Part shown: one piece after another, positions 21,440 to 45,171 of the stretch
Numbering within the stretch: the first letter of the stretch is position 1
How the letters are laid out: each line of letters begins with the position of its first letter
Assembly: GCF_041886205.1 (NCBI RefSeq)
Contig: NZ_CP169029.1
Length of the DNA: 64,000 nucleotides
Strand: one strand, 5' to 3'
Source of the DNA: Escherichia coli
Lineage (GTDB): Bacteria > Pseudomonadota > Gammaproteobacteria > Enterobacterales > Enterobacteriaceae
Made by a program: the position numbers and the translations under genes
The notes under the pieces: model-generated
Seen by the model: the letters and a program-made list of their open reading frames with translations, nothing else
The model's database searches: none
Told to the model about the DNA's origin: nothing

Positions 21440-22675
21440 CTACTTACTCACCACCAGCAAATGCGCCTGCATAATGTCGCTGGCCGGGCGACCGTGCGCC
21501 AGCAAATCAGCCATTGCTTTAAGATATGGCGGTAGATGGCGGAAATAACGCTGATATCCGGCACACAAATAATTCAGCCCCGGTTTGCCGCTGGCATCGA
21601 GCATGAAGCGGTGTTTCGGGCAGCCTCCCCAACATGCTTTTAACACGTTACAACTGCGACACTGCGCCGGTAACTGCTTAAATTTATCTTCACCAAACAC
21701 CTGCTGTTGCGGGGAATCGATCATTTCTGCAATTGTTTGCTGGTGCATATTCCCCAGCCGATATTGCGGATAAACATAGTGATCGCAGGCGTAAACGTCG
21801 CCGTTGTGCTCAACAATCACCGAGCGCCCACAGGTTGGCTGATGATGGCAAACCGCACCCGGCGCACCGACAAAATTGGCAAACGCCCATTCGATATTCA
21901 TCACGAAAATCTTGCCGACGTCGCGTTTGATCCAGTGGTCGAATATCGCCACCAGAAACTCACCGAACTCCTCGGGGCGCACCGACCATTCCGTTAGCTC
22001 ACCCTGAATATCACCAGGCGCATGTAACTTAAGTCCATCGCGGGCAGCTGTTTCATCAGCCAGGCGCTCGACCACCGGAATAAACTGGATGAATTCGACT
22101 CCCACATCGCACAAAAAATCATATACCTGCAACGGTTGCTGCGCGCTGGTGCGATTAACGCAGACCAGCACGTTATAGTCGACATGATGCTTTTGCAGCA
22201 GCTTCAAGGCACGCATCACCAGTTTATGCGTGGGTCTGCCGCCTTTGGTCACGCGATATTGATTGTGGATCTCAGCCGGACCATCCAGCGATAACCCAAC
22301 AAGAAAATGATTTTCTGCCAGAAATGCACACCATTCATCATCGAGCAGCACGCCGTTAGTCTGGAAGCTGTTACTTATCTTCCTGCCAGCACCATATTTC
22401 GCCTGTAGCGCCACGGCACGGCGGTAAAAATCCAGCCCGAGTAACGTTGGTTCGCCGCCCTGCCAGGTAAAAGCCACTTCGTTTTGGGTTTCGCTGGCGG
22501 CGATATAGTGACGGACATACGCTTCCAGCGTGTCATCGTCCATATGCGTGACTGGCTTTTCGCGGTAAATGGATTGTTTTTCGAGATAAAAACAGTAGTC
22601 ACAGTTCAGATTACAATCGGAACCGCTCGGTTTCGCCATCACATGAAAAGCACGCGTTGGAATCTGTTGCAGCAT
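21440..22675 (-). CDS. aslB: Anaerobic sulfatase-maturating enzyme homolog AslB (radical SAM)
   Basis: Translation MLQQIPTRAFHVMAKPSGSDCNLNCDYCFY (CxxxCxxC radical SAM motif) plus C-terminal Cys clusters; 411 aa. Confidence 0.9.
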   Translation of the reverse strand: MLQQIPTRAFHVMAKPSGSDCNLNCDYCFYLEKQSIYREKPVTHMDDDTLEAYVRHYIAASETQNEVAFTWQGGEPTLLGLDFYRRAVALQAKYGAGRKISNSFQTNGVLLDDEWCAFLAENHFLVGLSLDGPAEIHNQYRVTKGGRPTHKLVMRALKLLQKHHVDYNVLVCVNRTSAQQPLQVYDFLCDVGVEFIQFIPVVERLADETAARDGLKLHAPGDIQGELTEWSVRPEEFGEFLVAIFDHWIKRDVGKIFVMNIEWAFANFVGAPGAVCHHQPTCGRSVIVEHNGDVYACDHYVYPQYRLGNMHQQTIAEMIDSPQQQVFGEDKFKQLPAQCRSCNVLKACWGGCPKHRFMLDASGKPGLNYLCAGYQRYFRHLPPYLKAMADLLAHGRPASDIMQAHLLVVSK

Positions 22676-22789
22676 GGTCGCTCCTTGCCTGAAGTCATCC
22701 TTCAATACGTTAAGGGCGAAATCATACCGTGGGACAATGAGTTATTACGGGCGTTTATTGCGAAGGGAGAGTGACGAAATGCACAGAAA

Positions 22790-22822
22790 ACAAAAAACCC
22801 CGCCGAAGCGGGGTTCAAAATT
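22790..22822 (-). terminator. Intrinsic terminator after proM (hairpin ccccgcttcggcgggg + U-run on minus strand)
   Basis: GC stem with tetraloop followed by T-run when read on minus strand. Confidence 0.7.
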
Positions 22823-22899
22823 GGTCGGCGAGAGAGGATTCGAACCTCCGACCCACTGGTCCCAAACCAGTTGCGCTACCAAGCTGCGCTACTCGCCGA
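22823..22899 (-). tRNA. proM: tRNA-Pro (anticodon UGG)
   Basis: Minus strand reads TCGGCGAGTAGCGCAGCTTGGTAGCGCAACTGGTTTGGGACC...CCA-end; cloverleaf and anticodon loop identified. Confidence 0.9.
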
Positions 22900-22940
22900 A
22901 ATACTGCTTTTTGAATTTTTAGTTCAATTCTTTAAAGTCG

Positions 22941-23027
22941 TGGTGCGAGGGGGGGGACTTGAACCCCCACGTCCGTAAGGACACTAACACCTGAAGCTAG
23001 CGCGTCTACCAATTCCGCCACCTTCGC
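22941..23027 (-). tRNA. leuT: tRNA-Leu (anticodon CAG), long variable arm
   Basis: Minus strand GCGAAGGTGGCGGAATTGGTAGACGCG...CTTCAGGTG...CACCA. Confidence 0.9.
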
Positions 23028-23047
23028 ATTGTCACAACTTCTAATAA

Positions 23048-23124
23048 TGGGGTGGCTAATGGGATTCGAACCCACGACAACTGGAATCACAATCCAGGGC
23101 TCTACCAACTGAGCTATAGCCACC
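23048..23124 (-). tRNA. hisR: tRNA-His (anticodon GUG) with extra 5' G
   Basis: Minus strand GGTGGCTATAGCTCAGTTGGTAGAGC...GATTGTGATTC...CCA. Confidence 0.9.
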
Positions 23125-23181
23125 ACTACAAATCTTGTTACGCGGTATTACTACCACCGCAGCTCAAGCGCCGGGACTAAA

Positions 23182-23258
<77 letters not shown>

Positions 23259-23360
23259 TTAGCGCCGTTGCGGGGGTGGATAATACGGACTTCCCACCCC
23301 TCTGTCTAGTCTCTTTTTAAATAAATTGCGCGTTTGGTTACGGTTTGTGCGTTTTGCTGC

Positions 23361-24746
23361 TTATTCCTCCAGTTTATGTGCTTTACCGTGGCGATTAAGC
23401 CCAAAAACTTTATAAATCGCCGTCACCGCCAGCATAAAGATGATGCCGACAAACAGCGACATACGCGTATCTTCATTAAAGTACATGCCGATCAAAACGC
23501 AAATCAGGAATGCCATTGTTACGTAGTTGGCCCACGGGAACAGGATTGAGCGGAACGGATGGCTGGCAATCGCCGCTTTATGTGCACGCCGAAAACGCAG
23601 CTGGCTTATCAATATCACAAACCATGGCACCATCCCCGGAAGCACGCTGGCACTGTAGACGTAGACAAACACACGCTGCGGATTGGGAATGATGTAGTTC
23701 AGGCATGAGCCAATTAGCAGAATAGCAATAGATACTGCCACACCCGCAACTGGTACGCCGTGACGGGAAACTTTCGCCATCGCCGCCGGTAACTGACGGT
23801 TTTTCGCCAGTGCGTAGAGCATACGTCCGCAACTGTACATGCCGCTGTTACAGCCAGAGAGCGCAGCCGTCAGCACCACAAAGTTGATAATGCCCGCCGC
23901 TGCGGTAATACCGATTTTGGCAAAAGTCAGTACGAACGGGCTGCCGTTGCTGCCAATTTCATTCCACGGGAAGATGGTGACGATAACGAAAATCGCGCCT
24001 ACGTAGAAAATCAGGATCCGCCACAGCACTTTGCCTACGGCACTGCGCAGCGTCACCTGCGGATTCTTCGCTTCACCGGCAGTAATGCCAATCAGCTCCA
24101 CGCCCTGGTAGGACGCCACCACAATACACAGCGCGGTCAGGAACCCTTTCCAGCCACCCGCAAAGAAACCGCCATGCTCTGTGAGATTGCTAAAACCAAT
24201 CGACTGCCCGCCATTGCCAAAGCCAAAGAAAATCACGCCCAGGCCAATGACAATCATCACGATAATCGTGGTGACTTTGATCATCGCGAACCAGAACTCG
24301 ATTTCGCCGTACAACCGCACCGCCGCCAGATTCGCCAACGCCACCAGCGCCACCGCGATCAATGCAGGTATCCACTGCGCCATCTCCGGGAACCAGAACT
24401 GGACATAAACGCCAATGGCGGTGATTTCAGAGATCCCCACCGCCATCCACATAAACCAGTAAGACCAGGCGGTGAGATAGCCAAAGAACGGGCTCATATA
24501 ACGATGCGCATAAACGGCGAACGAACCGGTAACCGGTTCGAGGAACAACATTTCGCCCATTGAACGCATGATGAAAAAGACGAACAGCCCGGCGATGATA
24601 TAGGCCAACAATACGGATGGCCCGGCCCATTTCAGGGTACTGGCGGCCCCCATAAACAGGCCGACGCCAATAGTGCCCCCCAGGGCGATGAGTTCGATAT
24701 GTCGAGCTTCCAGCCCACGCTGTAGCTCTGGTTTGTTATCTGCCAT
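23361..24746 (-). CDS. yifK: APC-family amino acid permease YifK
   Basis: 461 aa, 12 predicted TM segments; N-terminus [24 protein letters not shown] typical of amino acid permeases. Confidence 0.9.
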
Positions 24747-24936
24747 AAATCCTCGTGTTGTGTTTGCATGCTTTCCGGTGTTACCGGTTATCGTTATGGG
24801 TACATCGAGTGTTGCGAATGTTTTCGTAATTCAGGAGAAATGGCAAATAAAGCATTAAAAATTTGAATGCTTTGTGTAATAAAAAGACAGGCAGGCGACG
24901 AAGTGACCACTCCGTCGCTATACAAAGAGAGGAAAA

Positions 24937-25677
24937 TCAGAGATCGCCGGTGTAATGCCAGCGTAAATAACGCAGCAAACGAAGCTGACGCTTAATGCGG
25001 CTCGGCTGCGAAAGCAGGCGGTAGAGCCACTCCAGTCCCAGCGTTTGCCAGATTTTCGGTGCGCGTTTTACGTGACCGGTGAAAACATCGTAAGTCCCGC
25101 CAACGCCCATATACAGCGCATCTGGATGCACCAGACGGCAGTCGCGCATGAAGATCTCCTGCTTTGGCGATCCCATCGCAACGGTGACGATTTGCGCTCC
25201 GCTGGCATGAATGCGTTCAAACAGCGCCTGACGCTGCTCGGGTTTAAAATAACCATCCTGACTGCCAACGATATTCACATTCCATTGGTTGCGCAGTTTA
25301 GCTTCAGTTTGCGCCAGCACTTCAGGTTTACCGCCCACAAGAAATACCGGCGTCCCTTCTTTGCCTGCGCGCGCCATCAGCTCTTCCCAGAGATCGGCAC
25401 CGGCAACGCGGGAAACCTGCGCCTGCGGGTACTTTTTACGTACTGAACGTACAACGCTGATGCCATCCGCATATTTAAATTCGGCAGCGTTAATTAACTC
25501 CCTGACCTCGGCGTTATCTTCAATGGTCAGCATTTTTTCAGCATTAATGGCAACTAGCGTTCCCTGCTTAAGCTGCCCGTCAGCAAACAGATAATCGAGG
25601 GCGTGCTGCATATCACGCCAACCAATCAACTGTAAGCCACGCAGCGTATAGGTCGGTGCCGTGGTGTTGTTATTCAT
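24937..25677 (-). CDS. wecG: ECA biosynthesis: UDP-ManNAcA transferase WecG (RffM)
   Basis: 246 aa; WecB/TagA/CpsF glycosyltransferase family; last gene of ECA cluster. Confidence 0.85.
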
Positions 25678-25679
25678 TG

Positions 25680-27032
25680 TTATCCTTCAACCTGCGTCCG
25701 GAGCGATGATTTTGTACGTTTATGAATGAGTCCGGCGCTTTCAAAAAGCCAGTACAACAGTTTTGCGATCATCAGACATGCGCCGAAGACCACGATAAAA
25801 AAGACTACGCGTGAGACAAACGAATCCAGCCCTTCACGTGCCAGCACGATCATATTGAAGATCGCCCCAAAGCAGAAACTGTGCAATATCGCAGCCTTAT
25901 AGCGATTAGTCTCGCGGTTGCCCAGCTCATACAGCCAGTCGAACCATTTGATGATCAGTCCAACCACAATCGCCCCGAGCGGGATGAACAACGCGCCGCC
26001 CATCACCACCAGTGAGCCTATAAGCGTAGGCGAGATCGCCAGTCCGGAGTGGTTATTCAGCACTTCCCAGGTAAAGTAGTTGGCTGAGTTCAGCACCATA
26101 CTCGGGCGACCCGGCCACAGCCAGGAAGGGATAAAGACATAGAAATCGCGGACAATTGGAGCCAGGCCCTGGAAGTCGATGTTGTCGTAGTTCTGCAACA
26201 GCAACGCCAGATTCTCCCACGGCGAGAAGGTGTCGCGAGTGAGATAGAGAAATGTATAGAACGCTTCATCGCCGCTCACATTCATTCCATAGCGTTTTAG
26301 CGCCAGCCAGAACATGCCAACAATCCCCAGCACGCCCGCCGCCGCCAGCATCCACAACGAAATCCAGCCGCGAATAATGCCAATAAACAGGAAGATAGCG
26401 AATGCGATGATGATATTAGCGCGAGTGCCGCCGACAATCATATAAGTCAGCAAGCCAAAGGCGACCGTGCTGACGAGGAAAAACAGCCACGCTTTGCTGT
26501 CCTGGCGCAGAAAGTAGACCACCAGCATCGCCGGGATGAAAAAGTAAAAGAAGCGTTTTAACGCCACGCCGGAGACTTCACTGGAGAAGATCTGACTGTA
26601 GGAGTTAAGCCGGAACAGCAAAAAGCCGTTGTGCATGAAGAAGATGCCGACGCTTACCAGCGCGATGCCCATCAGGATCACCCACGTGAGATTGGTCTCC
26701 ACGCGGTTCATGGTAAACAGCGGACGGCGCGGTACATCAGCAACGCGTTTGCGTAGGCGGGTTTTGTAGGTGACATAGTAAACCGCGTAGAAACAGCCCG
26801 CAGAAAGCAACGCCTGCAACAAGATTTCTGGCGGCGCGACACCAACATCAAAGCGAAATACCAGCACGCTGGTCAGTGGGAAGCCGAAGAAAAAGGTGAG
26901 CAAAAACAGCAATGAAAAGAAGACATTGAAGTTAAAGCGCACACGGCGAAACTCAAACCAGGTCAGCGTGGCAATAAACAGCGTGCAGAGCAGCCAGACA
27001 ACAAACAGGCCACTGAATTGCAGCAGACTCAT
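25680..27032 (-). CDS. wzyE: ECA polymerase WzyE
   Basis: 450 aa polytopic membrane protein within ECA cluster. Confidence 0.85.
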
Positions 27033-28108
27033 GCGACCTCCCCGGCGGCAATCGCCAACGCCCGCTGCCAGCCTTGTAGATAGTTAGGGCTAAAGAAGGC
27101 AATGGTGTTTTTATCCACCGACGCCAACTGGCGCTGCGCTTCACGCACAATATCCTCGTTGAGATCGTCGGTAGTAAACAGCACTGGCAAATGCTGTTCC
27201 GTCATATCCTGCCAGAACGGATTTTCCCGGTTAAGCACACAAGGAATGCCCGCCTGAATCAGTAAGCACAGCGTACCAATGCCCTGCTGGCGGGCAAAAA
27301 TAAAGTAACCAAGATCGCACTGACGAAGTAGCGCCAGATAGGCGTCAAATTCCAGTTTTTCGCTCAGAACTTGCAGATTTTCTTCGCTGAATAACTCCAG
27401 CCCCACCTGACGAACTTCCTCGATGTACGCTTCGTTATTAGGCGGATATCCCATCGGCACCACCACTTTTACCATATCGCCAAATTGCTGATGAACGGCG
27501 CGCAAGGCAGCAATATGCTCATTGCTGCGGTCGCCGGAGTTCCCCACCAGAATGGTCATTTTCCCTTCACGTTGCCGAGCGTTCGCCATCGTATTGAGAG
27601 AAGGGTCCATCCGCGTCGGGAAGTACAGCAGTTCGCCCCGCACCTTTGGATGCGTTTTGGCAAAAAAGCTCAAATCGCCGCGGGTGGCAAATACACAGCC
27701 GACTCGCTTTTGCGCCAGGCGACGTAGTGGGTAAAAAAGCTTATATCTCAAACCACTGGAAAGTTCGTACAGGTCTGCCCCCCAGATATGCCAGTAAAAC
27801 TGGCTGGGCTTAATGCCACCATTCAGCAGAGCCAGCCACAGTGTGGGATTGAACTGACCGTGGAAGAAAAAACGCTGCTGACGGTTAGCTTTTGCTTTCG
27901 CGATGACCGCTTCCGCCAGCGATTTTTTCCCAGGGAAAAATTGCACAGAAAGCGCCGGACAGCTATCACTTAAGCCGTCGTCCTTGCCAACAACCATAAA
28001 CTCGCGCGCGTCCTCGCTCGCCGCGGCCAGCGAGTCATTGAAAAACCGCAAAACGGTTCGGTTATGGTGAGGGATATCCGATCCCAGTACGTGAATCAGT
28101 ACAGTCAT
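27029..28108 (-). CDS. wecF: TDP-Fuc4NAc:lipid II transferase WecF (RffT)
   Basis: 359 aa; cluster position between wzxE and wzyE; 4-nt overlaps with both neighbours. Confidence 0.85.
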
Positions 28109-29355
28109 GCCCGCCTACGCCAGAGTAAAAACACGCCACAACAAAGAGAAAAATAGACGATATAGGTTGCCATATAGGCCTGCGCCGCGCCCAGTGCACC
28201 ATGCGCAGGGATTAGCCAGTGGGCAAATACCATCAATAAAGTGAACTGGCTGACTTCCGCCAGAATATAAAACCGCAGTGACGCTTTGGCGATCACCAGA
28301 TAACCAAATACATAAGCGCCCACTTTTAACACATCACCCACCAACTGCCAGGCAAAGAGATCGCGCATAGCGGTAAATTTATTCGACAACAGCAGCCAGA
28401 TAGCAAAATCACGCAGCAACCAGACGGTAAAACTCGCTGCCGCTACTGCCGGTAAGACGAATTTCAGCGATTTAACCACTTCCCGGGTGATATCGCGCTT
28501 TTCCGTTAGCCGCGACAACGTGGGCAGCAAATATACGCTGAACGATGCCGTAATAAATTGCAGGTAGGCATCGGAAATACTGCTCACCCCTTGCCAGATC
28601 CCCACCTCATCCCAGCTATACTGCGCCGCCAGCAGTTTACGCATCATGATGTAAGCAACAGGCAAGGTCACCGACGTAATCAACGCCATGAGCGTAAATT
28701 TGCTCAACTGCCCTGCCAGACCGTTATCCCAGCTGGGTTTCAGATAGCTTAACGGGATGACACCACGTTTGATCAACATGATGGCGGCAGGGATTACCAC
28801 CAGCGCGGGAATCAGCGCCAGACCCAGCAACGCCCCTTCATAACCGCCCAAACGGTAACTGACGTAGTACGCGAGAACGCCAATCAAGCTGCCAACAATC
28901 AGAGATAACGCATTACCTGCGGCATCGCGAAAGCCTTTCATCAGCGCCAGTAACAGGTTGCCCCAGGCGATCCCCATTTGCACCAGCGCCACTAAACGCA
29001 CCAGCCCCTGATAGTCGGTATTACCAAACAATCCCTGGCTGATTGGCGCTGCTGCCAGCACAAAAACCAGCGCCATCAGCGTAGAGAAACCAAGTACCAT
29101 CGCTGATGAAGTGCCGACCACGCGGCGCAGCTGTTGCGGATTATTATGGTACTGGGCAACGTATTTGGTTACACCGTTAAAGATGCCAGCCCCGGCAAGC
29201 ACGCCGAGCACGGTAATCAACTGGCGGAAATTTGCCGCCAGCCCAAGCCCCGCCGGACCAAATGACACCGCCAGCAACTTACCGACCAGTAACCCGGCAC
29301 CAATCTTGACCAGTGTACTGGCCGCCGTCCACAAGGACGCTTTCGCCAACGACAT
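28105..29355 (-). CDS. wzxE: ECA lipid III flippase WzxE
   Basis: 416 aa polytopic membrane protein of the Wzx family; position in cluster. Confidence 0.85.
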
Positions 29356-29356
29356 A

Positions 29357-30487
29357 TCAGGAGAAGTAGTTCAACAAAGTCGCAATTACCGTACGCTGAT
29401 TGACGGGCGACAAGTTGTAGAACAGCGGCAGGCGCAGCAGGCGCTCGCTCTCTTTGGTGGTGTAGCGATCTTCACCGTGGAACTCACCAAAGCGTTCCCC
29501 CGCAGGGCAACCGTGCAAAGGAATGTAATGGAACACCGCCATGATTTCCGCTTCTTTCAGAAAGTTAATCAACGCGCTCCGGTCATCAATATCCCGCAGT
29601 TTAATGTAGAACATATGCGCGTTCTGCACGCAGCCATCGGGAATCGACGGCAGCTCGATACGCCCGGCTTTCGCCAGAGGCGCTAACGCATCGTAGTAGT
29701 TTTGCCACAGCGCCAGACGTTGCTGGTTGATACGATCCGCTGCCTCCAGTTGCGCCCACAGGTACGCAGCTTGCAGATCGGACATCAAATAGCTGGAGCC
29801 GATATCTCGCCAGGTATATTTATCGACCTGACCACGGAAGAACTGGCTGCGGTTAGTGCCTTTTTCACGGATGATCTCGGCTCGTTCGATCAACGCTTTA
29901 TCGTTAATCAGCGTCGCGCCGCCTTCACCACCCGCCGTGTAGTTTTTGGTTTCATGGAAGCTAAAGCAGCCAATATGACCAATGGTTCCCAGTGCACGCC
30001 CTTTGTAAGTGGACATCACGCCCTGAGCGGCATCTTCCACCACAAACAGATTATGCTTTTTCGCCAACGCCATAATGGTGTCCATTTCGCAGGCCACGCC
30101 CGCGTAATGCACCGGCACGATAACGCGCGTTTTGTCGGTGATCGCCGCTTCAATCAACGTTTCGTCGATGTTCATGGTGTCCGGGCGAACATCCACAAAA
30201 ACGATTTTTGCGCCACGCAGCACAAAGGCATTGGCGGTGGAGACAAAGGTGTAGCTCGGCATGATCACTTCATCGCCAGGCTGGATATCGAGCAGCAGCG
30301 CCGCCATCTCCAGCGAAGCGGTGCAGGATGGCGTCAGTAACACTTTGGCGCTGCCAAAACGTTGCTCCAGCCACTGCTGGCAGCGACGGGTAAAACCGCC
30401 ATCGCCACACAGTTTGCCGCTACCCATTGCCGACTGCATATAGTCGAGTTCGGTTCCCACCACCGGCGGTGCGTTAAATGGAATCAT
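29357..30487 (-). CDS. wecE: TDP-4-keto-6-deoxy-D-glucose aminotransferase WecE (RffA), PLP-dependent
   Basis: 376 aa DegT/DnrJ/EryC1-family aminotransferase. Confidence 0.9.
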   Translation of the reverse strand: MIPFNAPPVVGTELDYMQSAMGSGKLCGDGGFTRRCQQWLEQRFGSAKVLLTPSCTASLEMAALLLDIQPGDEVIMPSYTFVSTANAFVLRGAKIVFVDVRPDTMNIDETLIEAAITDKTRVIVPVHYAGVACEMDTIMALAKKHNLFVVEDAAQGVMSTYKGRALGTIGHIGCFSFHETKNYTAGGEGGATLINDKALIERAEIIREKGTNRSQFFRGQVDKYTWRDIGSSYLMSDLQAAYLWAQLEAADRINQQRLALWQNYYDALAPLAKAGRIELPSIPDGCVQNAHMFYIKLRDIDDRSALINFLKEAEIMAVFHYIPLHGCPAGERFGEFHGEDRYTTKESERLLRLPLFYNLSPVNQRTVIATLLNYFS

Positions 30488-30491
30488 GTGA

Positions 30492-31166
30492 TCACCTGTA
30501 TAACCAGTACGCGGTGCTTTCTACATTCGCACCACTTTGTATGTATCGTTTAAGCGCGGCGGTGTTGCCCATTTGGGTCGCCACCCGCAAAGTTGTTTTA
30601 CCGCGAGCATACGCCCAGTTTAGCGCCGTTTGCATCAGCTCAGCACCTACACCGCGTCCAGCCAGCAGGCCAATTCGCGCATCTGTCGCATTGAGTTCCC
30701 GTAAAGAGACATAACCGCGAATACCGCCGGACACCGCACGTAAAATCAGACATTGATGATCAAAGGTGCCGCGCACGGCATTTTCAATCCACTGTGCATA
30801 AAAGCGTCTGCTGGCGTCAGGCGCATACCACGGCGCACGAAAACGGCTTTGCGCAAATGCGGCGCTGGCTAACTGACGTAATGCGGGAATATCGGTCTCT
30901 TGTGCCACTACAGCACCACTATCACTGACATTGTTCACGGGTAGTGCCAAATCAACTTCACCTTCTACCAGGGAGAATCCCAGCTGTTGCAGGGCATCCA
31001 GTTCACCCGTATTTGATGCCGCAATTTTGGCCTGCACCCGTGACCACGGCGCTAACACGTCTGGCGTCAGGAGCGGTGCTTCAGACGTAATGCGCACGAT
31101 GGCGCTGTTAACACCAAAGAAGGCGTTTTCCCAGGTTAGTGGCTCAATACTGGCGCGGACGGGCAC
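30492..31166 (-). CDS. wecD: TDP-fucosamine acetyltransferase WecD (RffC), GNAT fold
   Basis: 224 aa; overlaps rffH start; position in cluster. Confidence 0.8.
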
Positions 31167-32025
31167 GAAGTAACTCCAGCAGATATTGGCCGTAGCCAGT
31201 TTTCGCTAATGAACTGGCAGCACGCTTCACACCCTCGTCATCGAGCCAGCCGTTACGCCAGGCGATCTCTTCCAGGCAGGCAATCTTAAAGCCCTGGCGT
31301 TTTTCTACTGTCTGCACAAAGGTACTGGCTTCAATCAGGCTGTCGTGAGTGCCAGTGTCCAGCCAGGCAAATCCGCGCCCGAGCAGTTCAACGGTCAGGT
31401 TGCCCGCCTCGAGGTACATCTGGTTGATGGAGGTAATCTCCAGTTCACCACGCTCCGACGGCTTCACCTGCTTTGCGTACTCCACGACTTTACTGTCGTA
31501 GAAATAAAGCCCGGTCACCGCCCAGTTTGACTTCGGCTGTTTTGGCTTTTCTTCCAGCGAGATAACGCGGAAATTGTCGTCAAACTCCACCACGCCAAAG
31601 CGTTCCGGGTCCATCACCTGATAGCCAAATACCGTCGCCCCTTCCGTGCGCGCCGCAACATGACGCAGCTTCGGACTGAAGCCCTGACCGAAGAAGATGT
31701 TATCGCCCAGCACCAGACAAGAAGGTTCACCGTTGAGGAAGGTTTCACCGATGATAAAGGCCTGCGCCAGACCGTCCGGGCTGGGCTGTTCGGCGTATTC
31801 CAGCTGGATACCGAACTCACTACCATCGCCCAGCAGGCGCTGGAAATAACCTTTATCTTCCGGCGTAGTGATGATGAGAATTTCGCGGATACCGGCCAAC
31901 ATCAGCACCGACAGCGGATAGTAAATCATTGGCTTATCGTAAATCGGCAACAGTTGCTTCGATACGCCGCGCGTAATCGGATGCAATCGGGTGCCGGAAC
32001 CGCCCGCCAGGATAATACCTTTCAT
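31144..32025 (-). CDS. rffH: Glucose-1-phosphate thymidylyltransferase RffH
   Basis: 293 aa; N-terminal [19 protein letters not shown] nucleotidyltransferase motif. Confidence 0.95.
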
Positions 32026-32043
32026 GTTTGCCTCCGCTGAAAA

Positions 32044-33111
32044 TTAGCCTTTCAGACCTAAACGCTCGCCCTGATAGCTGCCGTCCTGCACCTGCTTCCA
32101 CCAGCTTTCATTAGCCAGATACCACTGCACCGTTTTACGCATTCCACTTTCAAAGGTTTCCTGTGGCAGCCAACCAAGTTCACGGGCAATTTTCGAAGCA
32201 TCAATGGCATAACGCAGATCATGCCCCGGACGGTCAGCGACAAAGGTGATCAAGTCACGATAGTGCGCCACGCCGTGCGGCTTGTTCGGAGCCAGTTCTT
32301 CCAGCAGCTCGCAAATGGTTTCCACAACATCGAGATTCTTACGCTCGTTGTGACCACCAATATTATAGGTTTCACCGACTTTCCCGGTGGTCGCCACGCA
32401 ATACAGCGCGCGGGCGTGATCTTCCACATACAGCCAGTCACGGATTTGCTGCCCGTTGCCATATACCGGCAGCGGTTTACCCGCCAGCGCGTTGAGGATC
32501 ATCAGCGGGATCAGTTTTTCCGGAAAGTGGTAAGGACCGTAGTTATTCGAGCAGTTGGTGATCAGCGTCGGCAGACCGTAGGTCCGCAGCCAGGCGCGCA
32601 CCAGATGGTCGCTGCTGGCTTTTGACGCGGAATAAGGGCTGCTCGGCGCATACGGCGTGGTTTCGGTGAAGAAATCATCCGTCGAGTGCAGGTCACCATA
32701 TACTTCGTCGGTGGAGATATGATGAAAACGGAACGCTGATCTTTTATCTTCCGTCAGCGTATTCCAGTAAGCCCGCGCCGCTTCAAGCAATGTATAAGTC
32801 CCGACAATGTTGGTTTCAATAAACGCTGCCGGGCCGTCAATAGAACGGTCAACATGGCTTTCGGCTGCCAGATGCATGACACAGTCTGGCTGATGCTCAG
32901 TGAATACGCGTGCCAGTTCTGCCCGATCGCAGATATCAACTTTCTCAAAGGCAAAGTGCTCGCTTTGCGCGACCGGTGCCAGCGACATCAGGTTTCCGGC
33001 GTAGGTCAGCTTATCGACCACTACCACCGCATCGCTCGTTTCGTTGATGATATAACGCACCAGCGCCGAGCCAATAAACCCGGCACCACCTGTTATCAGA
33101 ATTTTTCTCAT
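32044..33111 (-). CDS. rffG: dTDP-glucose 4,6-dehydratase RffG
   Basis: 355 aa; N-terminal Rossmann [19 protein letters not shown]; SDR-family YxxxK. Confidence 0.95.
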
Positions 33112-34373
33112 CAGCGCCAGACTCCTTTGGCATCGACGACATACTGCTGATGGACATTGTCGCCATTGATAACTTTGAACTGACTATGATCGACCAGCAT
33201 CACCAGCACGTCTGCCGTTGCCAGCGCCTCGTCAAGCTGCGCCAGAGTACAAAGCCCGGTCAGTTTTTTCGGCAACTGGTGGATGTTAGGCTCAACAACC
33301 AGCGTTTCGCCGCTGTGCCACTGGGCGATCAGTTCAGCGATTTCCATCGCCGGGCTTTCGCGCAGGTCATCAATATTCGGTTTAAACGCCAGACCAAAGC
33401 AGGCGATTTTCAGTTCACTGGCGCGTTTATCGGTAGCAGCAAGGCAGTCGGCAACCGCCGCTTTCACCTGATCGATAACCCAGAACGGTTTGTGATCGTT
33501 AACTTCGCGCGCGGTACGGATAAGCCGCGCCTGCTGGGGGTTCTGTGCCACGATAAACCACGGATCAACAGCAATGCAGTGACCGCCCACGCCAGGGCCA
33601 GGCTGAAGAATATTAACGCGAGGGTGACGATTCGCCAGGCGAATCAGTTCCCAGACGTTAATCCCCTGATCGGCACAAATCAGCGACAATTCATTAGCAA
33701 AAGCGATATTCACATCGCGGAAGCTGTTTTCGGTGAGCTTACACATTTCCGCCGTCCGCGAGTTAGTGACGACACACTCACCTTCGAGGAAAATTTTGTA
33801 CAGTTCGCTGGCGCGGGTCGAACAAACCGGCGTCATACCACCAATCACGCGATCGTTTTTAATCAGCTCGACCATAACCTGGCCCGGTAACACGCGTTCC
33901 GGGCAGTAAGCAATGTTGACGTCCGCCTGCTCGCCCACCTGCTGTGGGAAAGTGAGATCCGGACGCATCTCTGCTAACCATTCTGCCATCTTCTCGGTTG
34001 ACCCCACCGGCGAGGTGGATTCAAGGATCACCAGCGCGCCTTTTTTCAGCACTGGCGCAATGGAGCGAGCAGCCGATTCAACGTAGGTCATATCTGGCTC
34101 ATGATCGCCTTTAAACGGCGTGGGTACAGCAATCAGCCAGGCATCCGCTTCAACTGGCGTCGTGCTCGCTCGTAAAAAACCGCCTTCTACGGCAGTTTTT
34201 ACTACGCTCGCCAAATCAGGCTCGACGATATGGATTTCGCCACGATTGATGGTATCAACCGCGTGTTGGTTGATATCGACACCAATCACCTGTTTTTGCC
34301 GTGAGGCAAACGCAGCTGCTGTAGGCAGCCCGATGTAACCCAGTCCGATAACAGAAATGGTCGCAAAACTCAT
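33111..34373 (-). CDS. wecC: UDP-ManNAc dehydrogenase WecC (RffD)
   Basis: 420 aa; N-terminal [15 protein letters not shown]-binding motif of UDP-sugar dehydrogenases. Confidence 0.95.
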
Positions 34374-35500
34374 AGTGATATCCGATTATTTTTTAACGCT
34401 TCCAGAATGCGAGAGCATGCCTGACCATCACCATACGGGTTATGGGCGCGGCTCATAGCTTGATATTCGTTTTCGTCTTTTAAAAGACGCGTCACTTCCT
34501 CGACAATTCGCTGCTTATCCGTGCCTACCAGACGCACCGTACCCGCCGTCACCGCTTCCGGACGCTCAGTGGTATCGCGCATCACCAGCACCGGTTTCCC
34601 CAGCGAAGGCGCTTCTTCCTGAATGCCGCCTGAGTCGGTCAAAATCAGCCAGGCGTGGTTCATCAGCCAGACAAACGGTAAATACTCCTGGGGATCGATC
34701 AGAATGACATTTTTCACATGCCCCAGAATGCGATTGACCGGCTCTCTGACGTTCGGGTTGAGATGCATCGGATAGACAATCTGGATGTCCTGGTGCGTGG
34801 TGGCGATGTCTGCCAGCGCATGGCAGATTTCTTCAAAGCCACGACCGAAGCTCTCACGCCTGTGACCGGTCACCAGAATCATCTTTTTATCGGGGTCGAT
34901 AAACGGGTAATTTGCCGCCAGTTCTGAACGCAGCGTATCGCTGCTCATCACCTGGTCACGCACCCATAACAGTGCATCGATGACAGTATTACCAGTAATG
35001 AAGATTCGGCTATCCGCAACGTTTTCACGCAGCAAGTTTTGCCGGGAAGTTTCGGTTGGAGAGAAGTGATACATCGCCAGATGCCCGGTCAATGTACGGT
35101 TAGCCTCTTCCGGCCACGGCGAATAGAGATCGCCCGTGCGCAGACCAGCCTCAACGTGACCAACAGGAATACGCTGATAAAACGCCGCCAGGCTGGTTGC
35201 CAGCGTCGTCGTCGTATCGCCGTGAACCAGCACGACGTCTGGTTTGAACTCGGCAAGAATAGGTTTTAGCCCTTCCAGAATCCGACAGGTTATCTCTGTC
35301 AGGCCCTGTCCTGGCTGCATTATGTTGAGATCGTAGTCAGGTACAATGGAAAAGAGTTTCAGCACCTGATCGAGCATCTCCCGATGCTGCGCAGTGACGC
35401 AAACTTTAGCCTCAAAAAAAGGATCTTTTGCCAACGCATGCACCAACGGCGCCATCTTGATGGCTTCCGGGCGCGTACCAAATACAGTCAGTACTTTCAC
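34370..35500 (-). CDS. wecB: UDP-GlcNAc 2-epimerase WecB (RffE), GTG start
   Basis: Native N-terminus (M)[19 protein letters not shown] starts at a GTG codon; 376 aa. Confidence 0.9.
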
Positions 35501-35555
35501 ATCGATTCTCTTCGAATAAGCGGCGAGCGCCTTTGCGCTCACCGCAGCAGTGTTG

Positions 35556-36602
35556 CTATTTCGAGCAACGGCGGGTTAATGCGACACCAGCCCCGATCAG
35601 CCCCCCGACAATGCCCCACATAATCATCAGGAAGGCACGACGTGGGCTATCGCGTTTTACCGGTTCTTCCGGCGTACGCAAATAGCGATAGGTCTGAAAA
35701 CGCGGATCCAGGGTTGGACCAACATTCAGGGTGTTTAACATGGCCCGATTCTGATCATAGTCGAGATCAAAGGCCGGACCGACGGCCTGTAAATTTTCCA
35801 GTCGAGCCTGAAGCATTGGACGCCCAAGCAGGAACATTTCTGAATCAGGTAATTCCTCGGCAGGTACATCTGTCGCACTGCGCGAAATATTATGCTGCTC
35901 AGCAATTTTCAGCGCCTGCTCAATGCTGTTCATCCGGCGGTCGTAGATGGCTTTCGCCACCTCTTCCTGACGCTTCACCTGAGCTTTCATCTGGATGGTA
36001 CGCGCCGCCCATGCGCCTTTCAGCTCATCATTCAGATGGCTGGCTGCACGCTGGCTGGCAAAAGCAACATACTGACGTAACAGGTTATTAGCGTCAGGCG
36101 CGGTTTCGGCAATAAGCTTCACGCTGTCATTGACCGCGCGGGTAAAGTCTCCGGGGATAAACTGGATGTTGTTAATCATTTCATCCAGCAACGCCGCATC
36201 GGCTTTGCTGTTGCCCACCATCCGCTGTTTGTAATAGTCGGTTTGCAGCCAGAACTCTCTGCGGGTATCCCACGAGGCCAGTTGCATAACAAACTCTTTA
36301 TAGGCTTCGTCCATGACCGATGGTTGGTCGGCAGAAGCCATGTTTGAACGGACATCCAGGTTACGCAAAAATTGCTGCTGCGAGTAATATCCCCCCAGCA
36401 TATTCACCGTTGGACGATCGGTAATCGCCGTCGAGCTCCACTCCTGACGAGCAAAAAACGTATACGCCAGCGCGATTAACGCAAACGCCAGCCCCATGCC
36501 AATAATCCATAGCTTCCCAGCCCACAAGGTACGAAACAACCCACGAATATCCAGTTCATTTTCAGCGTCTTCGGCCGGTTTCCCAGGCATTGGTTGTGTC
36601 AT
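35556..36602 (-). CDS. wzzE: ECA chain-length regulator WzzE
   Basis: 348 aa; N- and C-terminal TM segments flanking periplasmic coiled-coil domain. Confidence 0.9.
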
Positions 36603-36613
36603 CACATCCTCAT

Positions 36614-37717
36614 TTATTTGGTTAAATTGGGGCTGCCACCACGATTTCTACGCAGTCTGCGTTTTATGCGCTTAATAAAGCGAGCAACTTTCCAGGCACG
36701 CTTAATGCAATATCCATAGAGGAAGAATGCTAGCAAAAAGAGCACCAGCATGACCCACTCCGGGACAAAATGAGAATATTCTGCCAGCACGCCAATGGAA
36801 GCGAGCAGTGCTGCGGCAAGGGTAATCAGCACAAACGCCTGACGGGAAGTAAACCCGGCACGCATGATCAAATGGTGAATATGCTGACGGTCAGGAGAGA
36901 ATGGGCTCATGCCTTTACGCAGGCGACGGTACATAATCGCCACCATATCCATTAGCGGAATGGCGATTATCCACAAAGCGGTAACCGGGCTGATGGGATG
37001 GGTTTTGCCCTGGGTCGTTTCGAGCAGGATCCAGATAACGGTAAAACCAATCAGCGTACTGCCTGCATCACCCATAAAGACTTTGTAGCGGCGACCCAGG
37101 ATACCAAGGTTAAGCATGATGTATGGCAGGATGGCGGCGATCATCGCAAAGCACCAGATTGCGAGGCTGGTTTGCCCGTCGAACCACAAAATCATACCGA
37201 TTGCTGCAAACGAGACGCAGGACAACCCGCCCAGCAAGCCATCAATGCCATCAACCATGTTGAACGCATTAATGGCCGCCCAGACGGCAAATAGCGTCAG
37301 GAAGTAACCAAACGGTCCGAGCACCATCTCCCAGGAGCCAAAGATATAACCCAGGCTACTGAGATAAAGCTTGCCGAACACCATCATAACAATGCCAACA
37401 GCGGCCTGTATGGTGGCACGGATTTTTACGCTGATATCAAAACGGTCATCCAGCGCGCCAATGAAAACAAGCACACCGGCACAAGCGAGATAGAGAGATG
37501 CATGCGGAATATAGTAATCGACAATTCCGAACGTGAAGCAAATCCCTGCGTAAACCGAAATACCCCCAACGAGTGGTATCAACCCCTGGTGACGTTTGCG
37601 GAAGTTTGGTTTATCCACTAAACCGACTTTTTTTGCCACCTTACGGGCAAAAAACAGAAACAGTGTCGTGAATAAAAAAATACTGATGAGATCAGTACTC
37701 ACTGTCAGTAAATTCAC
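36614..37717 (-). CDS. wecA: UDP-GlcNAc:undecaprenyl-phosphate GlcNAc-1-P transferase WecA (Rfe)
   Basis: 367 aa polytopic membrane protein, MraY/WecA family; immediately downstream of rho. Confidence 0.95.
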   Translation of the reverse strand: MNLLTVSTDLISIFLFTTLFLFFARKVAKKVGLVDKPNFRKRHQGLIPLVGGISVYAGICFTFGIVDYYIPHASLYLACAGVLVFIGALDDRFDISVKIRATIQAAVGIVMMVFGKLYLSSLGYIFGSWEMVLGPFGYFLTLFAVWAAINAFNMVDGIDGLLGGLSCVSFAAIGMILWFDGQTSLAIWCFAMIAAILPYIMLNLGILGRRYKVFMGDAGSTLIGFTVIWILLETTQGKTHPISPVTALWIIAIPLMDMVAIMYRRLRKGMSPFSPDRQHIHHLIMRAGFTSRQAFVLITLAAALLASIGVLAEYSHFVPEWVMLVLFLLAFFLYGYCIKRAWKVARFIKRIKRRLRRNRGGSPNLTK

Positions 37718-37956
37718 AATGCATGCTCTCAGAGAAAATTATTAGCAGAAGTATAACCACGAAGACCTTTATTCAGAAGGGAAAGTCCGTTCCAAACCCA
37801 CCAGTCCTGTGCAAAAATTAACCATTTGATATGCAAATTGCATAACATGCCAGCAAATTCCAGGAATTTTCCTAACATCGCCAGCGCGGCATTAAGATTA
37901 CAGATATAAAAGCAAAACGCCACGTAAACACGTGGCGTTTTTGGCATAAGACAAAT

Positions 37957-39216
37957 TTATGAGCGTTTCATCATTTCGAAGAAATCGTCATTGGTCTTGG
38001 TCATTGCCAGTTTATTAATGAGGAATTCCATTGCATCGATTTCGCCCATCGGGTGAATGATTTTGCGCAGGATCCACATTTTCTGCAGTTCTTCCTGAGT
38101 CGTGAGCAGCTCTTCTTTACGGGTACCAGAACGGTTGTAGTCGATAGCCGGGAAGACGCGTTTTTCAGCGATCTTACGAGAGAGGTGCAGTTCCATGTTG
38201 CCTGTACCTTTAAACTCTTCGTAGATAACTTCGTCCATTTTAGAACCGGTATCGATAAGCGCCGTCGCGATAATGGTCAGGCTGCCGCCCTCTTCCACGT
38301 TACGCGCCGCACCAAAGAAGCGTTTCGGACGATGCAGGGCGTTGGCATCCACACCACCGGTCAACACTTTACCTGACGCCGGAACAACGGTGTTGTAAGC
38401 GCGCGCCAGACGAGTGATGGAGTCGAGCAGAATGATAACGTCTTTCTTGTGCTCAACCAGGCGTTTGGCCTTCTCGATCACCATTTCCGCAACCTGAACG
38501 TGGCGAGATGCGGGTTCGTCAAAGGTAGAAGCAACAACTTCACCTTTTACCAGACGCTGCATCTCGGTTACTTCTTCCGGACGTTCGTCGATCAGCAGAA
38601 CCATCAGCACACAATCCGGGTGGTTGTAAGCAATGCTCTGAGCAATGTTCTGCAGCAGCATGGTTTTACCGGCTTTCGGCGGTGCCACAATCAGACCACG
38701 CTGACCACGACCGATAGGTGATGCCAGATCCAGTACGCGAGCAGTTAAATCTTCAGTAGAACCGTTACCACGTTCCATACGCAGACGAGAGTTTGCGTGC
38801 AGCGGGGTTAAGTTCTCAAAGAGGATTTTGTTGCGGGCGTTTTCAGGTTTGTCGAAGTTAACTTCGTTAACTTTCAGCAGCGCAAAATAGCGTTCACCTT
38901 CTTTCGGCGGGCGAATCTTACCAGAGATGGTATCACCAGTGCGGAGGTTGAAACGGCGGATTTGGCTAGGGGAAACGTAGATGTCATCAGGACCGGCGAG
39001 GTAGGAGCTGTCTGCGGAACGGAGGAAACCAAATCCATCCTGCAATATCTCCAGTACGCCATCACCAAAGATATCTTCGCCACTCTTTGCGTGCTGCTTC
39101 AGGATGGCAAAAATAATGTCCTGCTTACGCATACGAGCCAGGTTTTCCAGCCCCATATTTTCGCCGAGAGTGATCAGCTCAGAAACCGGCGTATTCTTTA
39201 ATTCGGTAAGATTCAT
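37957..39216 (-). CDS. rho: Transcription termination factor Rho
   Basis: Translation [40 protein letters not shown]...; Walker A GKT; 419 aa. Confidence 0.97.
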
Positions 39217-39300
39217 AGTGGTGTGAGTTCTTAAACTTGGGGTAAATCTCGAACTTAATGTTGTGAATGGTATGGCAGGATCATCCATGCCTGTTTACGG

Positions 39301-39402
39301 TCATCGACTCATGTCTTTTCGCTGCCTGGTCACAGGAGAGTACGCAGAACTGAAACGACAAGACGGATTGAGTGACGAGCCAGAAATCTGTTCACTTCGC
39401 AT
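39301..39402 (-). CDS. rhoL: rho operon leader peptide RhoL (33 aa)
   Basis: Minus-strand ORF MRSEQISGSSLNPSCRFSSAYSPVTRQRKDMSR upstream of rho. Confidence 0.75.
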   Translation of the reverse strand: MRSEQISGSSLNPSCRFSSAYSPVTRQRKDMSR

Positions 39403-39542
39403 TTAAGATAAAACGGGAAGCGTTGGAAATTACAAGATTCAAACTTAATAAGGTATGTTTAATACGAAGTCAACACTAAGTTAGCATGACTCACGCCGGG
39501 CGTCCAGTTTTTAGCGACGGGGCACCCGAACATGAAATTCCC

Positions 39543-39872
39543 TTACGCCAGGTTAGCGTCGAGGAACTCTTTCAACTGACCTTTAGACAGTGCACCCACT
39601 TTGGTTGCCGCCACTTCACCGTTTTTGAACAGCAGCAGAGTCGGGATACCACGGATGCCATATTTCGGCGCAGTGCCAGGGTTTTGATCGATGTTCAGTT
39701 TTGCAACGGTCAGTTTGCCCTGATATTCGTCAGCGATTTCATCCAGAATCGGGGCGATCATTTTGCACGGACCGCACCACTCTGCCCAGAAATCGACGAG
39801 GATCGCCCCGTCCGCTTTGAGTACATCCGTGTCAAAACTGTCGTCAGTCAGGTGAATAATTTTATCGCTCAT
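39543..39872 (-). CDS. trxA: Thioredoxin 1
   Basis: [37 protein letters not shown] (WCGPC active site); 109 aa. Confidence 0.97.
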
Positions 39873-40002
39873 ATATAACTCCACAGGAATAAGCCTGGCG
39901 TGTTGGTTTCGTTGTTGGTGTAACATTAACCAACTAAAGGTTGACTTTATTTCACCGGATACGCTTTCGTAAAGCAATAGTAAGCTGATATTCTACCACA
40001 CT

Positions 40003-41268
40003 ATGAGCAAAACACATTTAACAGAACAGAAGTTTTCCGACTTCGCCCTGCATCCGAAGGTTGTAGAAGCCCTTGAAAAAAAAGGGTTTCATAACTGTAC
40101 GCCCATTCAGGCACTGGCCCTTCCGCTGACGCTGGCGGGTCGTGACGTAGCCGGGCAGGCGCAAACCGGTACCGGGAAAACGATGGCGTTTCTTACGTCA
40201 ACGTTTCATTATCTTCTCTCTCATCCTGCGATTGCCGATCGCAAGGTGAATCAGCCGCGTGCCTTAATTATGGCACCGACGCGTGAACTTGCCGTGCAGA
40301 TCCATGCCGACGCAGAACCGCTGGCGGAAGCTACTGGCCTGAAGCTGGGTCTGGCTTACGGTGGTGATGGCTACGACAAACAGCTGAAAGTGCTGGAAAG
40401 CGGCGTTGACATTCTGATTGGCACCACGGGGCGTTTAATTGACTACGCCAAGCAGAACCACATTAACCTCGGTGCCATTCAGGTGGTGGTACTGGACGAA
40501 GCCGATCGCATGTACGATCTGGGCTTTATTAAAGATATCCGCTGGCTGTTCCGCCGTATGCCGCCTGCAAACCAGCGCCTCAACATGCTGTTCTCTGCCA
40601 CGCTTTCGTACCGGGTACGTGAACTGGCGTTTGAGCAGATGAACAATGCCGAATATATTGAAGTGGAACCGGAACAGAAAACGGGCCACCGTATTAAAGA
40701 AGAGCTTTTCTACCCTTCTAACGAAGAAAAAATGCGTTTGCTGCAAACGCTGATCGAAGAAGAGTGGCCAGACAGAGCGATTATTTTCGCCAACACCAAA
40801 CACCGTTGTGAAGAGATCTGGGGCCACCTGGCGGCAGATGGTCATCGTGTCGGTTTGTTGACAGGCGATGTCGCGCAGAAAAAACGTCTGCGTATTCTTG
40901 ATGAATTTACCCGTGGCGATCTGGATATTCTGGTTGCCACCGACGTTGCCGCGCGTGGTTTGCATATTCCGGCAGTGACGCACGTCTTTAACTACGATTT
41001 ACCCGATGACTGTGAAGATTACGTTCACCGTATTGGTCGTACAGGTCGCGCAGGCGCAAGCGGTCACTCTATCAGCCTGGCGTGTGAAGAGTATGCATTG
41101 AATTTGCCTGCTATTGAGACCTATATTGGTCACTCAATTCCGGTAAGCAAATACAATCCGGACGCATTGATGACCGATCTGCCAAAACCGCTGCGCCTCA
41201 CGCGCCCACGTACAGGCAATGGTCCGCGTCGTACTGGCGCTCCGCGTAATCGTCGTCGTTCAGGTTAA
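40003..41268 (+). CDS. rhlB: ATP-dependent RNA helicase RhlB (DEAD box)
   Basis: 421 aa; motifs [25 protein letters not shown]; Arg-rich C-tail. Confidence 0.95.
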
Positions 41269-44954: not shown

Positions 44955-45171
44955 AGGTGTATTGCTCAATCTTCGAACGGGGGGAGGATTGTAGCAGAAT
45001 CGCATTTGAATGTGACCGCGTGTAAGCCGCTAACCGGTTGGCTGCGGATGTTTAAATCAGAGAGAGAAGACCGAAATCGGAGTTCATCGTGAATCCATTA
45101 GACTTAGAAAATATCGGGTCGTAACGTTGTGTTATTACTTTTTCAGAGTTTACTAAGGAGAGGTTTACTCG

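Follow-up and report, generated by a model that had tools for sequence, protein, structure and literature searches.

The 12,781-nt stretch at 24937–37717 on the minus strand of the window (the whole 64,000-nt stretch of Escherichia coli DNA that we analysed) is an intact wec (rfe-rff) operon, and we are highly confident that it yields one twelve-gene message in which the conserved gene overlaps most likely serve termination-reinitiation. An intact twelve-gene operon for the enterobacterial common antigen (ECA) with overlapping genes is textbook biology and already known. An earlier note had listed the genes from wecA to wecG as complete and in this order on the minus strand, and this was confirmed by the ORF list, by two annotated genomes and by family models, with all twelve products passing the curated cut-offs of ECA-specific NCBIfam models and most of the matches running over the full length. 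We also agree with its description of the cluster as conserved core biology.

From family membership and knowledge of the pathway, the products of the operon would together build ECA, a polymer of GlcNAc-ManNAcA-Fuc4NAc repeats. WecA (rfe, 36614–37717, 367 aa with a GTG start; TIGR02380, 575 bits against a cut-off of 326) makes Und-PP-GlcNAc. UDP-ManNAcA is supplied by the UDP-GlcNAc 2-epimerase WecB (34370–35500, 376 aa, GTG start; TIGR00236, 621 bits) and the UDP-ManNAc dehydrogenase WecC (33111–34373, 420 aa; NF008286, 860 bits), and is added by the ManNAcA transferase WecG to make lipid II (rffM, 24937–25677, 246 aa; NF002980, 445 bits). The third sugar comes as dTDP-Fuc4NAc from the glucose-1-phosphate thymidylyltransferase RffH (31144–32025, 293 aa; TIGR01207, 534 bits), the dTDP-glucose 4,6-dehydratase RffG (32044–33111, 355 aa; NF007582, 831 bits), the dTDP-4-keto-6-deoxyglucose transaminase WecE (rffA, 29357–30487, 376 aa; TIGR02379, 737 bits) and the dTDP-fucosamine acetyltransferase WecD (rffC, 30492–31166, 224 aa, GTG start; NF008212, 355 bits over residues 1–224), and is added by the Fuc4NAc transferase WecF, which makes lipid III (rffT, 27029–28108, 359 aa; NF002752, 843 bits). 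The trisaccharide lipid is flipped by the lipid III flippase WzxE (28105–29355, 416 aa; NF011679, 808 bits) and polymerised by the ECA polymerase WzyE (25680–27032, 450 aa; NF002820, 869 bits), with the chain length set by the polysaccharide co-polymerase WzzE (35556–36602, 348 aa, ATG start; NF008645, 694 bits). It should be noted that we took the wzzE start as the ATG at 36602 rather than the GTG at 36605, and the wecB start as the GTG at 35500 rather than the GTG at 35542, following reference annotation over the mechanical ORF list; the crystallised WecD protein (2FS5 / 2FT0) aligns from residue 2 of the wecD reading frame.

The closest known system is the wec operon of E. coli K-12 MG1655 (b3784–b3794 plus b4481), which has the same twelve genes, gene order and total length, as well as the same chromosomal position with rho upstream and thrP and argX-hisR-leuT-proM downstream. 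An ungapped alignment of the stretch with MG1655 3967916–3980696 gave 98.8% identity, with 151 substitutions (1.2%) and no indels. This is the comparison with a reference wec/rff cluster that the earlier note had proposed as a check, and it found no gene missing and every frame intact, as all twelve genes are as long as in K-12, begin and end with the same codons and have no internal stops or frameshifts. Divergence is uneven along the operon, with five differences in the first ~2.5 kb (wecA, wzzE, in which every nucleotide is the same as in K-12, and the 5' end of wecB) and 1.45% in the remainder, and this is ordinary allelic mosaicism. The G+C content of the cluster (0.51–0.55) is chromosome-like.

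The substitutions result in 31 amino acid differences from K-12, most of them in WecF (11) and WecD (6), and such a concentration might be expected if the cluster only looked complete and one or more point mutations had inactivated at least one gene, leaving a strain without ECA. We consider this highly improbable, as no frame is shifted or interrupted by a stop and the product matches lie above the curated cut-offs, while between genera, too, WecF and WecD evolve faster than the other products. The stretch is 100% identical to that of a complete genome (E. coli wlxctx60), it shares at least 99% identity with 1442 E. coli records in all, and a match was found in 5425 of 5426 complete E. coli genomes.

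Upstream, the unit is bounded by the intrinsic terminator of rho, called by our terminator scan (37914–37941, minus strand; a 12-bp stem followed by GCTTTTATAT), just before which the rho coding sequence ends in the annotation of the 100%-identical strain. The adjoining region (37718–37913, minus strand) is that of the wecA promoter and 5' leader; published work puts this promoter, together with binding sites for PdeL and NsrR, between rho and wecA (PMC8669472, PMC12212991) and describes it as driving the twelve-gene operon (PMC8669472); a simple scan of the coding strand of this spacer returned no consensus-like sigma-70 site. Within wecA itself, a gSELEX study has recorded a site bound by RpoN. 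At the other end, thrP (yifK) and a four-tRNA cluster (22825–23258, four tRNA hits) follow the operon, and folding of the wecG–thrP spacer identified a candidate 3' structure just after the wecG stop codon (24881–24918, minus strand) in which a 10-bp hairpin (24895–24918) is followed 9 nt further on by a T5 run (24881–24885). This hairpin was not called by the strict terminator scan, and is possibly a non-canonical 3' end for the operon. Within the cluster, an Rfam scan of 22000–41000 at gathering thresholds found no RNA family, the hits being the four tRNAs and the trxA thermometer outside it, and literature searches produced no specific report of a terminator inside wec. Long plus-strand ORFs lie antisense to wecC (33150–33890, 246 aa), wecE and wzxE, and these we rejected as shadow ORFs because they are not conserved, their open length varying between 34 and 421 codons from one species to another.

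The genes of the operon are closely packed. Counted between the stop codon of each gene and the start codon of its downstream neighbour, overlaps being negative, the junction distances are +11 for wecA–wzzE, +55 for wzzE–wecB, -4 for wecB–wecC (34370–34373, ATGA), -1 for wecC–rffG (33111, TGATG), +18 for rffG–rffH, -23 for rffH–wecD (31144–31166, where the first 23 nt of wecD lie inside the end of rffH), +4 for wecD–wecE, +1 for wecE–wzxE, -4 for wzxE–wecF (28105–28108), -4 for wecF–wzyE (27029–27032) and +2 for wzyE–wecG. The five overlaps (three of 4 nt, one of 1 nt and one of 23 nt) are exactly where the earlier note had put them, and around eight or nine of the eleven junctions show an overlap or a 1–4 nt gap (five overlaps and three to four short gaps). 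Seven of the eleven fall between -8 and +6 nt (binomial P = 0.005 against the 24% reported for this range among unidirectional gene pairs of E. coli, PMC10666635) and one further pair overlaps by 23 nt, though this is only a modest enrichment over a typical operon because the 24% baseline includes non-operon pairs. The junction sequences differ from those of K-12 only by two substitutions, which lie just ahead of two of them.

We surveyed these junctions in 55 loci including the window and K-12, about 50 of which are from other Enterobacterales species. Starts were assigned to whichever start codon lay closest to the E. coli N-terminus in the alignment, a heuristic that favours the geometry seen in E. 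coli. On this basis, the 4-nt overlaps were retained in 84–91% of loci (wecB–wecC in 46/55, wzxE–wecF in 48/53 and wecF–wzyE in 46/53) and the +1 spacing of wecE–wzxE in 45/55. The wecC–rffG junction was either -4 (26/33) or -1 (7/33) in all 33 loci, and the -23 overlap of rffH–wecD was found in each of the 28 loci carrying rffH, with the wecD start codon at the same position. The longer spacers vary freely across the loci. Conservation also extends to the GTG starts of wecA (same position in 52/55 loci, window and K-12 included) and wecB (54/55, likewise), both of which are accompanied by weak ribosome-binding sites.

The Shine-Dalgarno (SD) signals differ markedly between the closely spaced genes. 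For wecC, wzxE and wecF the SD duplex energies are those of the coding-sequence background, both in the window and across species, and nearly all species lack an SD sequence at these three genes (for wzxE, the energy is +0.4 kcal/mol in the window with a median of -1.9 across 52 species). In contrast, good SD sequences precede rffG (-8.2 kcal/mol), rffH (-9.5 kcal/mol) and wzyE (-11.7 kcal/mol, with a strong GGAGG before the start). The conservation of the junctions and the missing SD sequences support, short of proof, a plausible role for termination-reinitiation coupling in wec, in which ribosomes finishing one cistron would restart on the next. Reinitiation would matter most at wecB–wecC, wecE–wzxE and wzxE–wecF because the downstream genes have no usable SD sequence, whereas rffG and wzyE might also be initiated independently from the strong SD that each has within the preceding gene. 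The reading of the overlaps in the earlier note as a sign of tight translational coupling is plausible on these grounds, but efficient termination-reinitiation has been demonstrated for distances of -8 to +6 (PMC10666635), and the 23-nt overlap lies beyond these.

The overlaps might instead be a neutral by-product of start and stop codon drift within tightly packed operons, with no role in expression, each cistron being initiated independently. The presence of overlaps alone proves little here, as -4 and -1 greatly outnumber any other distance between genes in 1,695 species, and the SD sequences of rffG, wzyE and rffH, together with the de novo initiation seen in a native E. coli -4 pair, bioBF, are what this explanation would predict. 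However, drift does not readily account for a geometry held in 84–100% of loci as far as Photorhabdus, Yersinia and Edwardsiella when the non-overlapping spacers of this operon vary between -4 and >180 nt, and efficient independent initiation is unlikely for wecC, wzxE and wecF given their missing SD sequences. We therefore regard neutral drift as the lesser possibility, though one with a real chance of being correct, and favour termination-reinitiation. [quoted passage not shown] Those pairs were studied with reporter constructs, and the SD was important in four of the five tested pairs, unlike the three wec downstream genes which have none. Our literature searches found no experiments on wec translation or translational coupling. 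A rationale for coupling based on stoichiometry is weak because most wec products are enzymes, and they are not known to be obligate heteromers.

The logic of the operon is shared with the O-antigen (rfb) clusters, which also combine nucleotide-sugar genes and glycosyltransferases with a Wzx flippase, Wzy polymerase and Wzz co-polymerase; rmlA and rmlB of these clusters are paralogues of rffH and rffG, and both systems depend on the initiating enzyme WecA (PMC12212991). Unlike the hypervariable O-antigen clusters, both the sequence and the position of wec are conserved throughout the order; wec also differs in its chromosome-like G+C content and in the regulators reported for it, PdeL and NsrR, which act at the wecA promoter.

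The 55-nt wzzE–wecB spacer contains a stem-loop (35520–35545, minus strand) with an 11-bp G+C-rich stem and a 4-nt loop, and an 81-nt stretch containing it folds at -33.6 kcal/mol (z = -3.8). A hairpin of differing sequence is found at the same position in most Enterobacteriaceae, with compensatory changes in seven of eight consensus pairs. A REP/BIME-type dispersed repeat was ruled out, as there is a single copy per E. coli genome. The stability, G+C-richness and structural conservation of the stem would suit an intrinsic terminator dividing the operon into two transcription units, wecA–wzzE and wecB–wecG, and a U run does follow the stem in a few species, such as Enterobacter sp. R1 and E. 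albertii. Most species have no such run, however, and in the window the stem is followed by CUUAUUCGAAG and in E. coli and Citrobacter by CUUAUUCG or CCAAUCCG, none of which is a U tract; the terminator scan did not call the stem, which is not a canonical intrinsic terminator, and a simple sigma-70 scan found no consensus-like promoter ahead of wecB. [quoted passage not shown] A division into two units is thus improbable, and we retain the single twelve-gene message.

Just downstream of the stem-loop come a weak ribosome-binding site that hardly varies, AAGAGAAUCGNUGUG, and the wecB GTG start. It is conceivable, though we think it doubtful, that the stem-loop, weak ribosome-binding site and GTG start form an undescribed post-transcriptional control point, which could shield the upstream mRNA from 3' exonucleases or insulate the wecB initiation region. 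Such a control point might set the ratio of WecA and WzzE to the downstream enzymes, or might tune WecB separately because WecB also feeds the NGR glycan, which phage N4 uses as a receptor.

This copy is a normal allele, its locus is among the best-known polysaccharide operons, and it has little discovery value; its practical value is as a quality check, as it indicates that the region is correctly assembled with no pseudogenes and with gene boundaries as expected. The junction distances should help in the construction of non-polar wec deletions or in re-coding the operon, where most cistrons are no more than 4 nt apart, and it is relevant to the design of such deletions or re-coding that three of the downstream genes, wecC, wzxE and wecF, appear to rely on translation of the gene upstream.

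The twelve consecutive minus-strand ORFs at window positions 24937–37717 of a mechanical ORF list are annotated as wecA, wzzE, wecB, wecC, rffG, rffH, wecD/rffC, wecE/rffA, wzxE, wecF/rffT, wzyE and wecG/rffM, in that order, in both E. coli K-12 MG1655 (K-12) and E. coli strain wlxctx60 (where rffH carries the name rfbA), in agreement with the complete 12-gene minus-strand cluster claimed in the earlier note. When this 12,781-nt stretch was used as a megablast query against all complete E. coli genomes (n = 5426), it was matched in 5425 genomes, with at least 80% query coverage in 5424, and the top match was wlxctx60 with 100% identity (one genome had no match and one more a partial match only). 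The weaker matches include nine on plasmids and eight records at only 60–80% identity, and may represent rmlA/rmlB paralogues. In wlxctx60 and K-12, rho lies upstream of the stretch and thrP and four tRNA genes lie downstream of it, and the matches, gene order and flanks together identify the window as E. coli chromosome; the wec locus is already known.

An ungapped alignment to K-12 positions 3967916–3980696 was of equal length with 151 substitutions (98.8% identity), and no frameshifts or missing genes, which the earlier note had said would refute it, were found in comparison with K-12: all 12 genes have the same length, start codon and stop codon, with zero internal stops, and each of the 12 products scores higher than the curated cut-off set for its NCBIfam model. 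Compared with the mechanical list, the reference annotation places the wzzE start at the ATG at 36602 and the wecB start at the GTG at 35500. The first ~2.7 kb (window ~35200–37717) shows five differences from K-12, with wzzE identical, whereas 24937–35200 has diverged by 1.45% (Poisson P ~1e-11 for the contrast), and this sharp change in sequence divergence points to a recombination breakpoint near the wecB 5' end.

Junctions read from the sequence had exactly the positions and lengths of the five overlaps claimed earlier, all on the minus strand: ATGA at wecB/wecC (34370–34373), wzxE/wecF (28105–28108) and wecF/wzyE (27029–27032), TGATG at wecC/rffG (base 33111 is common to both), and 23 nt at rffH/wecD (31144–31166). 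Another four junctions are separated by 4, 1, 2 and 11 nt, and only wzzE–wecB (55 nt) and rffG–rffH (18 nt) are looser. Seven of the eleven junctions fall within -8 to +6 nt (stop-to-start distance, negative for overlaps) compared with 707/2,987 (24%) of E. coli unidirectional gene pairs (PMC10666635; binomial P = 0.005), but as this baseline takes in non-operon pairs, the wec operon is tight, yet not extraordinary.

For a cross-species comparison, 80 loci were fetched around WecE relatives (one genome per species) and the 55 with at least nine wec genes kept, a count which takes in the window and K-12. Using the start codon closest to the aligned E. coli N-terminus, a heuristic biased towards E. 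coli geometry, we found distances of -4 at wecB–wecC (46/55 loci), wzxE–wecF (48/53) and wecF–wzyE (46/53), +1 at wecE–wzxE (45/55), -4 (26/33) or -1 (7/33) at wecC–rffG, and -23 at rffH–wecD in all 28 loci, while the wzzE–wecB, rffG–rffH and wzyE–wecG spacers varied widely. The wecD start within the 23-nt overlap is constant in position: Escherichia, Citrobacter and close relatives use GTG there, and Serratia, Yersinia, Photorhabdus and others use ATG. The dual-coding stretch shows almost no variation; crystallised WecD (2FS5/2FT0) aligned from residue 2 of the window wecD frame. The 12-gene form is not universal in Enterobacterales, as many species have a shorter cluster without rffG and rffH, so that wecC abuts wecD, or without rffH only (among the fetched loci, ten genes in L008, L010–L012, L014–L019, L023, L024, L029, L036, L040, L043–L045, L048, L049, L052 and L057, and eleven in L021, L038, L041, L042 and L056). 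Loci L059–L083 contain WecE relatives with 66–70% identity and lack the remaining wec cluster (Lachnospiraceae, Erysipelotrichaceae, Sulfurovum, Pseudoalteromonas and others); they presumably serve as sugar aminotransferases in polysaccharide loci of other kinds.

The wec cluster has been described as a 12-gene operon (PMC8669472), and insertions, including in wzzE, are reported to be polar on all ECA forms (PMC6083912). Our terminator scan found a canonical terminator after rho (37914–37941, minus strand), and the wecA promoter plus PdeL and NsrR sites have been placed in the 196-nt gap upstream of wecA (PMC8669472, PMC12212991). After wecG, a 10-bp hairpin (24895–24918, minus strand) with a T5 run nine bases further on is a possible non-canonical operon end. 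Long plus-strand ORFs antisense to wecC (33150–33890), wecE (29702–30340) and wzxE (29111–29686) were ruled out as genes, as the number of codons they run without a stop differs from species to species (34 to 421), and are shadow ORFs of codon-biased genes. Elsewhere in the window, ilvG, which is frameshifted in K-12, is an uninterrupted 548-aa ORF (53427–55073, minus strand), two overlapping partial ORFs of 86 and 91 aa (~45171–45619, plus strand) lie where near-identical wlxctx60 is annotated with a frameshifted PemK/MazF-family toxin pseudogene, and a TrxA 5' UTR thermometer (Rfam RF02773, 78.8 bits) lies upstream of trxA (39843–39942, minus strand).

Shine-Dalgarno (SD) strength, computed as duplex energy with the anti-Shine-Dalgarno sequence (kcal/mol), was at background level for wecA (-2.7), wecB (-2.9), wecC (-3.3), wecE (-3.8) and wzxE (+0.4), and strong for rffG (-8.2), rffH (-9.5) and wzyE (-11.7). 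Across ~50 species, an SD is almost never found at wecC, wzxE or wecF and almost always at rffG and wzyE. Strict coupling has been shown for four of five native E. coli -4 pairs (PMC6728339), and coupling decays steeply with stop–start distance (PMC10666635). On this SD pattern and the precedent of native -4 pairs, termination–reinitiation is most likely at wecB–wecC, wecE–wzxE and wzxE–wecF, and at wecC–rffG and wecF–wzyE coupling may act jointly with independent initiation. The overlaps listed in the earlier note are confirmed and its reading of them as a sign of tight translational coupling is supported, with the coupling itself something we infer; our literature search found no wec translation experiments. 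GTG starts are kept at wecA (37715–37717) in 52/55 loci and at wecB (35498–35500) in 54/55, including the window and K-12, and with background-level SD pairing in the upstream 20 nt of both minus-strand starts, this suggests that weak initiation of WecA and WecB is deliberate.

The 55-nt wzzE–wecB spacer contains a stem-loop with an 11-bp G+C-rich stem (35520–35545, minus strand), and the 81-nt stretch holding it folds with -33.6 kcal/mol (z = -3.8). Most Enterobacteriaceae have a hairpin of different sequence at the same position; in several genera further removed there are two. In an alignment of 22 species, compensatory changes occur at seven of eight consensus pairs and 87.5% of cells pair, compared with 75% in shuffles (0/500 reach the observed value) and 40–69% in slid controls. 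It occurs once per genome and is therefore not a REP element, and we have not filed it as a terminator because it is without a U tract in E. coli. Directly downstream, AAGAGAAUCGNUGUG, which includes the wecB GTG start, is nearly invariant. The stem-loop might stabilise the mRNA or insulate the region where wecB translation begins; it leaves the verdict on the wec locus unchanged, and together with the nearly invariant start motif and the conserved GTG starts of wecA and wecB it could be an undescribed, if modest, post-transcriptional set-point.
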